The notes beneath the pieces were generated by a model that was given only the letters and a program-made list of their open reading frames with translations, was not told where the DNA came from and made no database searches. Below are positions 25,854-31,839 of a stretch of 64,000 bases of DNA, in pieces. The translations under genes and the position numbers were made by a program. Position 1 is the first letter of the stretch. Every line of letters starts with the position of its first letter. Source of the stretch: Myxococcota bacterium (GTDB lineage Bacteria; Myxococcota_A; UBA9160; SMWR01). The stretch is from contig DATKND010000047.1 of the NCBI GenBank assembly GCA_035541475.1, positions 508-64,507 of the forward strand. The letters are read 5' to 3'.

Positions 25854-27299
25854 GTGACCCTACGCACGTCGCTGTCCGGCATGGACGCCGCCTTCCTCTC
25901 GCTCGAAACGCCCAACACCCCCATGAACGTGATGGGGACGTTCTTGCTCGATCCCACTTGCGCTGGAGAAGGCTATTCGTGCGAGCGGGTGGTGCAGCAG
26001 ATCGAGGAGCGGTTGATCCGTCTGGCGCCATTCCGCCAGCGGCTGGTCTCCGTTCCATTCGGCCTCGACCATCCCGTCTGGATCGAGGATCCCGACCTCC
26101 GCGTTCGCGACCACATCCACCGGGTGCGAGCGCCCGCTCCCGGGTCGGACCGGGCGCTCGCCACTCTGGTGGCGCGAATCGCCGCGCGGCCGCTGGACCG
26201 GACCCGGCCCCTGTGGGAGCTCTGGGTGGTGGAAGGCCTCGGCGAGGAGCGAGTCGCTCTCGTCTTCAAGCTCCACCACGCCATGGCGGACGGAGTCTCG
26301 GCGGCAAAGCTCCTGCTCCAGCTCTTCGATCCCTCGCCGCTGGCGTTGGCCGAAGCTCGAGCGCCCGAACGCGCGCAGCCGAAGCCGGCTCCGACGCGCG
26401 GCGCGTTGCTGGCCTACACGCTCTCGCGACTGCCCGGGCGGTCCGCGCGCTTCGCGCGACTGCTGCGCGACAGCGCGGAATCGATCGTCGCGGGAATGAC
26501 TCGCTCGATGGGCGGGGAGTCTTCGGACGGAGCGCGCATGCCGATGCCCTTCAGCGCGCCGCGCATGCCGTGGAACGCGGCCACATCGGCGCGGCGCTGT
26601 GCTGCGTATGGAAACGCCCGGCTCGCGGACATCAAGGTCGTCGGTGCGGCCTTCGGCGCGACCGTCAACCACGTCGTGCTCGCCGCCTGCACGCAGACGC
26701 TGCGGAACTACCTGGAGAGCCACGGGGGGGCACCGAGTGTTCCCCTGGTCGCGGCGGTACCGATCTCGCTGCGCAGTCCGTACGACCTCGAGACGCACGG
26801 CAATCGCATCTCGGCGTTCCTCGTGCATCTCCCCGTGCACCTCGCCGATCCGGTGGAGCAGCTCTTCGCCGTGCGTGACGCCGCGGTGTCGGCGCAGCAA
26901 CTCCATGGCCGGCTCGGCGTCGGAGCGCTGGGAGAGTGGGCCGAGTTCGCCTCCGCGAGCCTCCTCGGAGGCGCCGCGCGCTTCTACTCGAAGCTCGCGC
27001 TCGCCGGCCGGCACCGACCCCTCCACAACCTCGTGATCTCGAACGTGCGCGGTCCGGGGACTCCGCTCTACGTCGGCGGCGCGAAGCTCTGCGCCGCCTA
27101 TCCGCTCGGTCCGCTCATGGATGGAGCGGGGATGAACATCACGGTCGCGAGCTATCTCGAATCGGTGGCCTTCGGAATCCTCGCGTGCCCGCGTTCGGTG
27201 CCCCACGTGGCGGACATCGCGATCGGCTTCGGCGCCGCCGTGGCCGACCTCCGGAAGCTCGCCCTCGAAGCGGGGGATTCCCCGTCGGTGCACGCATGA
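25854..27299 (+). CDS. Wax ester synthase / diacylglycerol acyltransferase (WS/DGAT)
   Basis: LSGMDAAFLSLETPNTPMNV, LDRTRPLWE, active-site motif KLHHAMADG, NLVISNVRGP, LNITV-like motif and C-terminal ACP motif. Confidence 0.93.
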   Translation: MTLRTSLSGMDAAFLSLETPNTPMNVMGTFLLDPTCAGEGYSCERVVQQIEERLIRLAPFRQRLVSVPFGLDHPVWIEDPDLRVRDHIHRVRAPAPGSDRALATLVARIAARPLDRTRPLWELWVVEGLGEERVALVFKLHHAMADGVSAAKLLLQLFDPSPLALAEARAPERAQPKPAPTRGALLAYTLSRLPGRSARFARLLRDSAESIVAGMTRSMGGESSDGARMPMPFSAPRMPWNAATSARRCAAYGNARLADIKVVGAAFGATVNHVVLAACTQTLRNYLESHGGAPSVPLVAAVPISLRSPYDLETHGNRISAFLVHLPVHLADPVEQLFAVRDAAVSAQQLHGRLGVGALGEWAEFASASLLGGAARFYSKLALAGRHRPLHNLVISNVRGPGTPLYVGGAKLCAAYPLGPLMDGAGMNITVASYLESVAFGILACPRSVPHVADIAIGFGAAVADLRKLALEAGDSPSVHA

Positions 27300-27520
27300 A
27301 ACGAATCCACATCCACTCGCGCGTTCGCGTCGCCGACGGAGCGGTTCTCGCTGCGGCGCTGCGTGGGCCGGCAGATCGACGGCCAGAGCCGGGCCAGATG
27401 CTCTGGGCCGGGCGCCTGGCATGCGTCACGGGCTATCGCCGCAGCCCCGAGGACCGCCCATCCTTTGTGCTGGAGGGTGCGCCGGGGCTCTGGGCCGAGG
27501 AGTGGCTCGATCCGGTCTGA
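27296..27520 (+). CDS. Small hypothetical protein (74 aa)
   Basis: ATGA overlap with the WS/DGAT stop; MKRIHIHSRVRV...WAGRLACVTGY...LEGAPGLWAEEWLDPV. Confidence 0.55.
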   Translation: MKRIHIHSRVRVADGAVLAAALRGPADRRPEPGQMLWAGRLACVTGYRRSPEDRPSFVLEGAPGLWAEEWLDPV

Positions 27521-27615: not shown

Positions 27616-27957
27616 ATGCCCGACGACAGCTCGAGCGAGGAGCGACGCCTGCGGAGTCTCTGGTCGCAGATTCAAACGGCCTGGCTCCAGATCCCGCTCC
27701 CCAAGAGTTCCTGGCGCTCGGTTCCCACCTGGCAGGTCTTCTCGAAGCGCTTCGAACGCTGCCTCCGCCGCGTTTCCTTCTACGTGAACCGGCGCGTTGG
27801 GGACCCCAAGGTACGCGGGCGCATCGTGACGCGAGTCCTGATCGAGAATCCGGACCTCTTCGTCGTGCACTGCGACGAGCTGGAAGAGCTGAGACGCCTG
27901 GAAGCGTCGGCGGATCGGCTGCTCGCTCTGGAGGCGGCGACCCGCGCGGGCGCATGA
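27616..27957 (+). CDS. Small sigma-70 region-2-like protein (paralog A)
   Basis: FERCLRRVSFYVNRRVGD...RIVTRVL; 35 of 65 residues identical, without gaps, to the convergent ORF at 28019-28300. Confidence 0.7.
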   Translation: MPDDSSSEERRLRSLWSQIQTAWLQIPLPKSSWRSVPTWQVFSKRFERCLRRVSFYVNRRVGDPKVRGRIVTRVLIENPDLFVVHCDELEELRRLEASADRLLALEAATRAGA

Positions 27958-28018
27958 ACGCGCCGACGATCGCGACGCGCGATGGCAAGTCCCGAAGTCG
28001 CGCTCGTCGTCAGACGCT

Positions 28019-28300
28019 TCATACCGCAGTCACCTTGTGCGGCGCGCGGCGGATCTTCGGACGGACTTCTTCCAACGCGATCAGTCGGTCCGCAGACCTC
28101 CTGAGGCGACGGATCTCCTGGGCTTCGTCACATCGGCCGATCAGGAGCTCCAGATTCGCCACGAGGACCGCGCTCACGATCCGCTCCAGGCTCTCCCGAT
28201 CATCGGTGCGTCGGGCTACATAGGCGTGGACGCGGGCGAAGCAGCGCTCGAAGGCATTCGAGAATGCCGCAGGGTCGACCTCTTCGAACGCTAGTGCCAC
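28019..28300 (-). CDS. Small sigma-70 region-2-like protein (paralog B)
   Basis: GTG at 28300 inside track ORF 28019..28537; AFERCFARVHAYVARRTDD..SLERIVSAVL. Start position uncertain. Confidence 0.7.
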   Translation of the reverse strand: MALAFEEVDPAAFSNAFERCFARVHAYVARRTDDRESLERIVSAVLVANLELLIGRCDEAQEIRRLRRSADRLIALEEVRPKIRRAPHKVTAV

Positions 28301-28533
28301 GTCGCGCCGATGGCGCGACGCGCGACCAGGAGATCGACACCGAAGCACAGCGGCGCCGACGGTGCGCTCAACAGGCAGACCGGAGCACCAACTACCCACA
28401 GCTCGTTCCGCAGCAACACAATTCCTCCACCGGTGAATGCGCGAGCCTAGTCGCACGGGAGTCCCCTTCGACATCCATGGATCCCTGGATATGTCGGGCG
28501 GGAAACTCGGAGATTCCGCGGCTGCTCGACGGC

Positions 28534-28960: not shown

Positions 28961-29095
28961 TGTGACCAACGCTCTTCGAAGTGACAGCTAGCGCAGCCGG
29001 TAGCTCATCCCGCTGAGGTCGAGCACGTGGCTCCGGTGGAGCAGGCGGTCGAGGATGACCGTGGCCAGCCCCTCGTAGCCGGCCAGCACGGCGGG
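28961..29095 (-). mobile_element. istB: IS21-family remnant: IstB C-terminus plus possible right end
   Basis: Not in the ORF track. Minus strand reads PAVLAGYEGLATVILDRLLHRSHVLDLSGMSYRLR* (stop at 28988-28990), matching the IstB ATAILDRLLH.S....I.G.SYRL signature. A TGT-starting end at 28961 is tentative. Confidence 0.8.
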
Positions 29096-29390
29096 ACGAC
29101 CGAGAAGCCGTTCGCGATGGCCCGCACCGCCAGCCCTCACCGAGCGAGCGCCCTTCGTCGCGGCGGGCTGCCTGGCCGACGAGCCGACGAAGCGATGTCA
29201 CCGGTCCGATTGGCGAAGCCCTCGAGCAACCCACGTTAGTTGGCAGCGCGAGAGCTCCGGTCCCCCCGGATCCCCGGAGAAGCGCGAACGAGAAGCGTGG
29301 ATTCGAGGGTCGTCCGAGCAACGCCACGGACGCGGCAGAGAGCTGTCTGCCGCGAGCTGTGGGGCGCGAGCGATCCCGCGGGAGCCCCGT

Positions 29391-30320
29391 TCATTCGGCA
29401 CTTGGTTGGATTGCGCCGTGTCGCTGCGCGGACCGCACTGACAGATGGGCGGGCGCGGTGGAGGAAATGAAGTCGACGAGCACCTCGACGAACCGCTCGG
29501 GGGCTTCGCAGTGCGGGAAGTGGCCCACCCCGTCGAAGATCTCGAGTCGGCTGCCAGGAATGGCGTTGTGCGCCGCGATCGCATGGCTCACCGGAATGAA
29601 TGGGTCTTGCGCTCCCCACACGATCAAAGTGGGCAGCTTCGCGACCCGGGACAGGCGTCCAAGGGCGCTCACCGCCTGCCCGTTGAAGTCGATCACGTCG
29701 CGCAGGCTGCGAAAGAATGCGCGGCGGTTCTCGGCCTCCGCCAGCGATGCGAAGCTCCGCCAGATCTCACGGCTGGCGGGCGTGAACCGCACGCCGGCAC
29801 GGCCGAGCCAGCAGGCGACCCGGTTCCCAGCGTCTCGCAGCGGAGGCGTGCAGAAGAGGGGGAACAGCGACTCGAATCCGGGCAAGGTCAGCATCCGGAG
29901 GTAGAACGTGACCTCCCGGCCCAGTCCACCGCTGTCCACCAGGACCAGGCGCTCACAGCGCTCCGGGAACTGATAGGCAAACTGCATGGCCACGCCGCCC
30001 CCGAGCGACTGGCCGATGACGGTGGCCTGCTCGTGCTCGAGCGCGTCCAACAGGTCGCGCAGCGTGTTCGCATGGGCCCCGAGCGAGTAGTCGCCCTGGG
30101 GCTTGTCGGACTCCCCCTGGCCGAGCAGATCGGGGGCCAGGACGCTGAACTGCATGCTCAGCGCCGGCAGGACGCGCCTCCACGCCACCGAGCTACCGGC
30201 CAGGCCGTGGACGAGCAGCAGCAACGGTCCCTGGCCGCCGCACCGATAGACGATCCGCTCGCCGTGGGCCGCGATCTCACGCCGCCGGATCGACGCCCAA
30301 CGCGATTCGTCCGCGCTCAT
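29391..30320 (-). CDS. Alpha/beta-fold hydrolase
   Basis: LLVHGLAGS, APDLLGQGES, nucleophile elbow GQSLGG, IVWGAQDPFIP, GVGHFPH. Start trimmed to ATG 30320. Confidence 0.92.
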   Translation of the reverse strand: MSADESRWASIRRREIAAHGERIVYRCGGQGPLLLLVHGLAGSSVAWRRVLPALSMQFSVLAPDLLGQGESDKPQGDYSLGAHANTLRDLLDALEHEQATVIGQSLGGGVAMQFAYQFPERCERLVLVDSGGLGREVTFYLRMLTLPGFESLFPLFCTPPLRDAGNRVACWLGRAGVRFTPASREIWRSFASLAEAENRRAFFRSLRDVIDFNGQAVSALGRLSRVAKLPTLIVWGAQDPFIPVSHAIAAHNAIPGSRLEIFDGVGHFPHCEAPERFVEVLVDFISSTAPAHLSVRSAQRHGAIQPSAE

Positions 30321-30490
30321 GATCGCATCATCTTCGATGAGCTCTCGACGACGGCGGGCCTTCCAGCTCACGCCATCGATCGGCGTGCCGCCCCGCAGGT
30401 CGGCGTCGAACATCCTTAGCAGATCGTTCCCGAAGTCTTCGCCGAGGACGATCGAGTCGAGGTCGTCCTCGTGAAAGACGGCCCGGGAAG
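30321..30490 (-). pseudogene. Possible cardiolipin synthase (PLD) C-terminal remnant, in frame with the hydrolase
   Basis: SRAVFHEDDLDSIVLGEDFGNDLLRMFDADL..GTPIDGVSWKARRRRELIE resembles the ClsB-type tail (RSFLHNDE..AVVLG..F...M..MF..DL....I....W..R). Confidence 0.45.
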
Positions 30491-30696: not shown

Positions 30697-30885
30697 CTAT
30701 TGCTCGAGCGACGTCAGGCCCTCGCGAATCGCGTACTGGTGAGATCGGCGACGCTGTGGATGCCGAGCTTGCGCATGACATTGCGGCGGTGCGTCTCGAC
30801 GGTGCTCGTCGCGACGAAGAGACGCCGGCCGATCTCCGGTGAGCTGAGTCCCTCCGCCAGCGCGTCGAGGAGGGAGGTCTCGTCG
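30697..30885 (-). pseudogene. LuxR/NarL-type HTH remnant with frameshift
   Basis: LLDALAEGLSSPEIGRRLFVATSTVETHRRNVMRKLGIHSVADLT continues as YAIREGLTSLEQ* in another frame after a 1-nt loss near 30737; no receiver domain upstream. Confidence 0.85.
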
Positions 30886-30924
30886 TCGATGATATTCGGG
30901 CGATTCCCGACGCCGTACGAGCGG

Positions 30925-31428: not shown

Positions 31429-31839
31429 GTGACTCTCTTCCGCTCACGGGCGTCACTGCTTCCGGACCCCGCCGAGCCCATCCGATCCGAGCTATTCAGC
31501 GTCGAACGTCTCGAGCAGCACGCCGAGAGCCTGGCCGCCGCGCAGAGCGTGACGCCGGACCGGCGCGGAGGTCGGCCGCTGTTGCCACGGCTGAAGGACA
31601 ACGCCCGCGCATTGCTCACCTGCTACCGGACGATCGCGCAAGCGATTCGCGAGGAGCGGACGATCCCGCCCGCAGCCGAGTGGCTCGTCGACAACTTCCA
31701 CATCGTCGACGATCAGATCCGCCAGATCCCCGCGTCGTTCTCGGCTCCGACACGGCTTCACCCTGGCCGACGCCGAGCAGGCGCACCGACAGAGCCAGAC
31801 CGGGCGCGTGACGGACAGGTGCGGCTCCTCGAATCGTGA
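31429..31839 (+). pseudogene. N-terminal remnant of cyclic beta-1,2-glucan synthase (NdvB/Cgs-like)
   Basis: EPIRSELFSVERLEQHAESLAAAQ...PAAEWLVDNFHIVDDQIRQI is the start of this family (about 2800 aa); similarity stops after about 100 aa. Confidence 0.8.

Follow-up and report, generated by a model that had tools for sequence, protein, structure and literature searches.

A locus at which two small open reading frames (ORFs) face each other, both resembling region 2 of ECF sigma factors and both lacking region 4, raises the question whether such frames are debris of sigma genes or genes in their own right and, if the latter, what a sigma region 2 could do on its own. The locus lies in a stretch of 64,000 nucleotides (hereafter the window; G+C content about 68%) from the 4.96-Mb metagenome-assembled genome (MAG) of a Myxococcota bacterium. 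The first-pass annotation of this DNA had described the pair as paralogous mini-proteins, both under selection, and had proposed that they form a new class of sigma-mimic regulators, possibly sensing redox through a pair of cysteines.

Two facing genes, A and B

The two frames, here called ORF A and ORF B, converge across a short spacer:

27616-27957, plus strand: ORF A, 113 aa, type I sigma-2-like mini-protein with an N-terminal helix and a three-helix core
27958-28018: A/B spacer, 61 nt between the convergent stop codons; deletion site relative to the related contig L007
28019-28300, minus strand: ORF B, 93 aa from a GTG at 28300, type II sigma-2-like mini-protein consisting of the core only

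The frame of B is open from 28537 to 28019 on the minus strand, its conserved part begins at the GTG at 28300, and the homologues in P0017, L008-L010 and L069 were called from the equivalent GTG position. The spacer contained neither a promoter or terminator-like site nor an unusual fold (z = -0.4). BLASTP aligned A and B without a gap (35/66 identities, 43/66 positives, E 7e-20), and the motifs quoted in the first-pass annotation were present in this alignment, so that its description of two facing paralogous ORFs was borne out. The codon-aligned cores shared 121 of 198 nucleotides (61%), with 45 matches in 66 codons at each of the first and second positions and 31 at the third. The paralogue pair gave a dN of 0.41, a saturated dS of 1.2 and an omega of 0.34. 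Since third positions are near random and dS is saturated, the likeness of A and B has been conserved at the protein level after an old duplication. A recent inverted duplication was also considered as the origin of the pair, and was ruled out by the 61% DNA identity and the near-random third positions. Both genes are the sole copies of their family in this MAG.

Close homologues of A (n = 15, 60-93% identity) came from Myxococcota MAGs and soil metagenomes, and every one of them measured 102-137 aa. Orthologues of B occur in L007, L008-L010, L069 and L070, where they were called as 93-94 aa. The orthologue alignments of both genes were free of indels in at least five independent contigs. Nei-Gojobori estimates of omega ranged from 0.33 to 0.67 for A and from 0.37 to 0.75 for B; in the same genome pairs, the values were 0.10 (GroEL), 0.21 (an alcohol dehydrogenase), 0.29 (WS/DGAT) and 0.42-0.45 (two accessory genes), the range over neighbouring genes being 0.10-0.51. 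Thus, A is constrained about as strongly as the accessory neighbour genes, and B more weakly. With orthologue omega below 1 throughout and a paralogue ratio of 0.34 at saturated dS, the earlier claim that both are selected genes was upheld, and A and B are, as judged from their sequences, intact genes under purifying selection and not debris of sigma genes.

Upstream of A, between this gene and WS/DGAT, we noted a 74-aa ORF (27296-27520, plus strand; MKRIHIHSRVRVADG...), the start codon of which overlaps, as ATGA, the stop codon of WS/DGAT. In L007 and L008 this ORF is kept with an omega of 0.27-0.51, and it had no Pfam match. It was rejected as a partner of the whole family, since in L071 the A-type gene is preceded by an unrelated gene of 75 aa.

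Family extent and relation to ECF sigma domain 2

A profile search against 1.84 billion protein representatives (clusters at the 50% identity level) recovered 110 representatives (E <= 1e-3), 77 of them at E <= 1e-10. Almost all of these approximately 110 clusters fall between 65 and 160 aa in length, and their similarity reaches down to 25% identity. Sigma region 4 is absent from the family: Sigma70_r4 was matched by 0 of 100 members, the ten longest included, and in these ten no sigma domain of any kind was identified. Indeed, apart from a CsbD fusion, no Pfam family (Sigma70_r2, Sigma70_r4 and DUFs included) was matched by any of the 100 members. No Pfam or NCBIfam model covers the family, we found no paper describing these proteins, and ten diverse members that we checked were all metagenomic and labelled 'hypothetical protein'. 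A pattern search of genome contigs, built from alignment A2, matched 92 patterns, none of which was confirmed. Because all of the approximately 110 clusters are small and none carries region 4, the notion that the homologues are full-length ECF sigmas, and A and B truncations thereof, is removed. The family occurs in Myxococcota and soil metagenomes, and its distribution within uncultured Myxococcota is narrow and patchy.

In a tree of 112 sequences, those sharing the N-terminal motif W[LI]x[IV]P...PTW formed a clade apart from the remainder. We termed this clade type I; it includes A, G021_99, G158_b, G503_a, G218 and P0025. The rest of the tree, type II, includes B, G021_113, G503_b, G516 and G529. 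One gene of each type was found in the genomes G000, G021, G158 and G503 and on the metagenome contig L098. Since types I and II split anciently and co-occur in several genomes, the convergent arrangement of A and B is a secondary juxtaposition of two old paralogues. The first-pass annotation was therefore right in calling the pair paralogous, but the two are members of two ancient subtypes and not products of a local duplication. In G509, two sigma-2-like domains of the GY.RW.DPLYAYVSR subgroup are joined in a single 204-aa frame (L094 7364-7978, minus strand, corresponding to G509:C7:335396-336040). This tandem fusion suggests that the domain may work as a dimer.

Two further kinds of fusion were observed among the metagenomic proteins. 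In P0053 and P0033, which belong to the ten longest members, the sigma-2-like domain is followed by a C-terminal CsbD domain. In P0065 it is joined to a 91-aa secreted-protein type (GQVTKIDLE...VGD.IEAKR), possibly as an artefact of gene calling; the same type follows B's operon in L007.

The earlier note had likened the beginning of both proteins to the start of ECF sigma region 2, and four independent kinds of comparison supported this likeness. When the 100-member family alignment was compared with 12 ECF sigmas from the same genome, hhalign returned a probability of 91% (E 9.5e-7), and 88.7% in a separate run; residues 39-97 of A were placed on ECF residues 7-65, i.e. on regions 2.1-2.2 and the start of 2.3. 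Partial, sub-threshold matches to ECF models were frequent among the 100 members (TIGR02952 in 48, best E 4.8e-7; TIGR02985 in 31; SigK in 10), and for B a match to TIGR02952 at E 0.076 was the sole Pfam/NCBIfam match of A and B. Conversely, the family profile matched genes of 200-250 aa in about 55 genomes at model positions 40-82, with E values down to 1e-10. They encode genuine ECF sigmas, all from a single orthologous group (...YERYFPRVYRFVDRRVSNRADxEEIVQEVF...), which includes this genome's C70:12237 gene, a PF04542 match. PF04542 (Sigma70_r2) itself matched neither A nor B at E <= 10 and none of the 100 members; its 23 loci in this genome include neither gene. In a search of PDB sequences with the family profile (hmmsearch), nothing was obtained at E <= 10.

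AF2 models (pLDDT 80, pTM 0.63-0.68) predicted helices at residues 4-24, 39-60, 64-83 and 88-112 of A, the N-terminal one being a predicted amphipathic helix (LWSQIQTAWLQIPL...PTW). A Foldseek search of the PDB placed the sigma-2 domains of M. tuberculosis SigH and E. coli SigE on top, SigH leading for the second model, and isolated sigma-2 (SigE) entries recurred with target-normalised TM scores of 0.5-0.56; the matches were not significant (best E 1.2), so that the ranking alone is informative. The expected resemblance of the predicted fold to sigma-2 was hence found in the order of the matches but not in their significance.

The most conserved stretch of the family is the sigma 2.1-2.2 segment. 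Within it, the region 2.2 'QE' core-binding pair is half kept: E is present in 43 of 100 members and Q in none, and the pair reads TR in A and SA in B. Helix 3 aligned to the ECF sigmas just at its start (hhalign), and its columns in the 100 members conserve L..[AS][AS]DRLI and not aromatic or ARN..D residues. This third helix is family-specific, with L95, D100 and R101 conserved at 83-90% within the [AS][AS]DRL[IL] motif. Together, these data support the assignment of the A/B core as a probable diverged derivative of sigma regions 2.1-2.2, related by remote homology. Because they have no region 4 and no recognisable -10-reading motif, the family proteins would not qualify as sigma factors. 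We regard it as highly probable that A and B are real genes of a stand-alone, previously undescribed family of about 90-130 residues derived from sigma-2.

The family alignment also bears on the cysteines. Both A and B have cysteines at positions equivalent to C49 and C86, which had led to the proposal that a conserved pair senses redox. However, Cys occupies the C86 position in just 13 of 100 members and the C49 position in 63; C86 is replaced by S or F in 4 of the 15 close homologues of A and by R in the near-identical copy in L070. As a family feature a redox-sensing pair is refuted, and we give such a role next to no credence.

Gene neighbourhood in relatives and in this genome

The most complete arrangement was seen on L098. 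Here, a 934-aa CheB/CheR-PAS fusion is followed by a PAS-HisKA_3 kinase, a REC-GerE regulator, a receiver-only regulator and a type I member, the gene of which overlaps that of the receiver-only regulator. On the divergent arm, a Transgly_assoc gene precedes a type II member and a 2907-aa GH94 glucan-synthase-like protein. Parts of this module recur, with Pfam support, in G021, G158, G218, G414, G464, G509, G528 and G529, and its surroundings contain CsbD, DUF3309, DUF5670, DUF1328, BON, Gly-zipper and sigma-54-activator genes. Genes of the CsbD, BON, DUF1328, DUF3309 and DUF5670 types are typical of general and osmotic stress regulons across bacteria. A small NepR-like or ECF gene was not consistently found nearby at the loci inspected.

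Among the 193 genomes of the order, the family was present in 15, the receiver-only regulator in 12 and both in 9 (Fisher p 1.2e-9, with genomes counted without phylogenetic correction). In eight of ten cases the receiver-only regulator lies upstream of a member on the same strand, at a distance of 20-580 nt. It is absent from 6 of the 15 family-positive genomes, this one included; either the link between regulator and family is not obligatory, or those six MAGs are incomplete.

A giant GH94/glucoamylase protein resembling cyclic beta-1,2-glucan synthases was always found directly downstream of the type II member (L065 2-4993, L066 12611-16999, L098 7686-14339). This hints that synthesis of a glucan, an osmoprotectant, is an output of the module.

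The company of small stress proteins, together with the CsbD fusions in P0053 and P0033, the degenerate QE motif and the lack of significance of the fold matches, would also suit a helical stress protein or scaffold, e.g. an accessory of chaperone-like or membrane-stress function whose expression accompanies that of CsbD, Transgly_assoc and glucan-synthesis genes, in which the sigma-2 likeness reflects distant ancestry without transcription-related binding. Yet the gene with which members are closely paired, in a set orientation, encodes a signalling protein (the receiver-only regulator) and not an effector, and conservation peaks precisely in the sigma 2.1-2.2 segment. A pure stress scaffold is thus an improbable reading.

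In this genome, the sequence around B differs from that of the relatives, and the following features were mapped:

27978-28022, minus strand: Gly-zipper lipoprotein remnant, first 15 codons (MKRLTTSATSGLAIA); its ATG overlaps the stop codon of B (ATGA)
28291-28419, minus strand: 42-aa ORF left by an in-frame deletion inside the gene of a PEP-CTERM-like secreted protein of ~140 aa
28534-28737, minus strand: HisKA/HATPase_c kinase remnant, C-terminal 66-67 codons; 89.6% identity to the L069 kinase, residues 329-395 only (tblastn)
28988-29140: IstB-like tail, remnant
30738-30914, minus strand: GerE/LuxR helix-turn-helix remnant; 62% identity to residues 147-206 of the NarL-type regulator of L067 (tblastn)
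31456-31728, plus strand: GH94 cyclic-glucan-synthase-like remnant, N-terminal; 60% identity to L065, residues 23-111 only (tblastn)

The coordinates of the LuxR remnant were converted from C47 coordinates, the window and L007 being colinear with gaps. Comparison of the two by blastn showed that L007 8349-8812, a segment with two small genes, is missing from the A/B spacer site. In L007 and L069, an intact lipoprotein gene of 70-72 aa with a Gly-zipper_Omp match follows B. The 42-aa ORF joins a signal peptide to a C-terminal PEP-CTERM-like anchor, and its end overlaps the GTG of B by 10 nt; L069 (1339-1761) and L007 retain this gene at full length, the deleted part corresponding to L007 9182-9476. 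This deletion is common to the closest relatives (39-aa ORF in L010). The HisKA/HATPase_c kinase, which heads the operon of B in relatives, is complete at 387 aa in L008 and at 395 aa in L069, and is likewise intact in L007; an intact GH94 giant gene adjoins family members in L065, L066 and L098. Compared with L007, L008, L069 and L070, the losses comprise the two small genes downstream of B, the PEP-CTERM interior, the bulk of the kinase, the BON and regulator genes and all but about 90 codons of GH94. Gene lengths in L007 (ENA contig_38978) are unreliable: GroEL, WS/DGAT, ALAD and the kinase were each split into at least two called genes, which suggests frameshift errors in the assembly.

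One intact alpha/beta hydrolase gene (29391-30413) stands amid the mosaic of remnants between 28534 and 31839. By sequence comparison, these remnants are evidently what is left of the signalling module, which L007, L098 and G021 carry intact. The receiver-only regulator, the CheB/CheR-PAS fusion and the HisKA_3 kinase were not detected by tblastn elsewhere in the MAG, which is 93% complete. Since the kinases, both regulators and the glucan synthase are reduced to remnants in the assembly of this genome, A and B are orphaned yet intact, a state that had escaped the first-pass annotation.

A remnant-rich locus naturally invites the view that A and B are themselves decaying fragments of ECF sigma genes, i.e. 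truncated pseudogenes that happen to be open: the 3 kb beside B are a mosaic of kinase, IstB, LuxR and GH94 remnants, and omega of B rises to 0.75 in some pairs. Fragments of this kind, however, would not account for homologues that are all short with the same ends in about 110 clusters, none of them full length and down to 25% identity, nor for a conserved, family-specific third helix, for omega values below 1 throughout with the protein pattern kept at saturated paralogue dS, or for fixed gene positions in the intact operons of relatives. This reading is largely refuted, and we consider it extremely unlikely.

The neighbourhood also bears on a second alternative, in which the mini-protein is one half of a split sigma subunit. 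It would make the region-2 contact with the beta-prime clamp, and promoter reading would fall to a REC-GerE (NarL-type) regulator of the same operon, giving a two-piece sigma under the control of phosphorylation. Size and content of the mini-proteins fit a region-2-only protein, and in L067, L092 and L098 a member shares one operon with a REC-GerE regulator that has weak Sigma70_r4 matches (E 2e-4). Such weak region-4 matches are, however, typical of GerE domains in general. Moreover, the nearest conserved neighbour is the receiver-only regulator and not the GerE protein, no conserved aromatic or basic -10-melting motif is recognisable in helix 3, and in this genome the GerE regulator is gone although A and B persist. 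Despite the precedent of SigO-RsoA, in which sigma-2 and sigma-4 reside on two polypeptides (PMC7826278), we hold a split sigma to be unlikely.

A putative sigma mimic compared with known systems

In sigma factors, the helices of regions 2.1-2.2 hold the beta-prime clamp of RNA polymerase, and the same surface is masked by anti-sigma factors. We propose that the mini-proteins would act by protein-protein contact as sigma mimics, made available or withheld by the neighbouring receiver-only regulator according to its phosphorylation. The system would then amount to a split, region-4-less analogue of PhyR, in which the mini-proteins could modulate RNA polymerase or a sigma/anti-sigma pair and thereby switch on stress genes. 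A regulatory role as sigma mimic gains plausibility from the relatives, in which the gene of the receiver-only regulator immediately precedes the member inside a cluster of two-component and stress genes. Taken by itself, this sigma-mimic or partner-switch mechanism, which we infer from sequence and context, is tentative and somewhat less probable than even. The binding partner could equally be the RNA polymerase core or an anti-sigma factor, a member of the other subtype or the NarL-type regulator. Simple core binding is opposed by the degenerate QE pair, by the six family-positive genomes that lack the regulator and by the lack of a NepR-like gene at the loci seen, and the weak constraint on B (omega 0.4-0.75) counts against the explanation as well. 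To the explanation as a whole, i.e. a two-subtype family derived from sigma-2, its place in a stress signalling module, the sigma-mimic mechanism and the orphaned pair in this genome, we assign a probability of roughly 0.55.

A more specific version would be a partner switch built from sigma-2-only paralogues. Here, the receiver-only regulator would bind one subtype, much as REC lies on the sigma-like domain in PhyR, and phosphorylation would decide between pairing of type I with type II and engagement of the beta-prime clamp, or else completion of a composite sigma together with the NarL-type regulator. Such a general or osmotic stress switch would have arisen independently of the alphaproteobacterial PhyR-NepR-EcfG system. 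Drawn by analogy, such a scheme is conceivable though rather unlikely.

Few proteins contain sigma domains without working as sigma factors themselves, and the known cases have been informative about mechanism: PhyR is a sigma mimic that drives a whole stress response, and RsoA stands for a sigma factor split in two. A region-2-only family with two subtypes beside a receiver-only regulator would extend sigma mimicry to another phylum, in a simpler form that dispenses with region 4. It would also supply a testable output for the widespread, unexplained modules of CheB/CheR-PAS fusions and HisKA_3 kinases. For annotation, the family gives a name to about 110 'hypothetical protein' clusters and cautions against the label 'truncated sigma genes'.

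Compared with ECF (group 4) sigma factors, the family displays the pattern RVY.YV.RRV.D....ERIV.EVL where ECF sigmas have RVYRFVDRRVSNRAD.EEIVQEVF over regions 2.1-2.2, and its predicted three-helix fold is best, although not significantly, matched by the sigma-2 domains of SigE and SigH. In contrast to ECF sigmas, A and B have no region 4, the part that serves -35 recognition and flap binding; their chains stop after the third helix, measure 93-113 aa in total and had no Sigma70_r2 match; in place of the segment W...ARN..D, with which ECF sigmas read the -10 element, helix 3 of the family has [AS][AS]DRL[IL].

PhyR requires both its sigma-2 and its sigma-4 part to hold NepR. In the PhyR-NepR-EcfG partner switch of the alphaproteobacterial general stress response, PhyR is the anti-anti-sigma: its sigma-like domain, which captures the anti-sigma factor NepR, is under the control of a receiver domain (PMC4551977). 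The likeness lies in a sigma-derived, non-sigma domain that is tied to a receiver domain and to stress genes such as CsbD and DUF1328 (PMC4551977). PhyR, however, unites sigma-2, sigma-4 and a C-terminal REC in one polypeptide, whereas REC and the sigma-2-like part are separate genes in the family: a REC domain was found in 0 of 100 members, and the receiver gene is missing from this genome. The family also differs in being without region 4, and the loci inspected showed neither a NepR nor an EcfG gene close by.

RsoA, finally, is a protein of about 79 aa that binds the beta-prime coiled coil. Like RsoA, A and B are small and stand-alone, and their homology is confined to ECF regions 2.1-2.2, the comparison being one of size and content. 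In the split sigma SigO-RsoA of Bacillus subtilis, RsoA (YvrHa) carries region-2-like sequence only (PMC7826278). Unlike RsoA, neither A nor B is adjoined by a SigO-like partner gene, and no region-4 partner was found in the window; the conserved neighbour of the family in relatives is instead a receiver-only regulator, in another phylum and in another gene context. A and B thus belong neither with the ECF sigma factors nor with PhyR, and among the systems compared it is RsoA that they match, in size and content alone.
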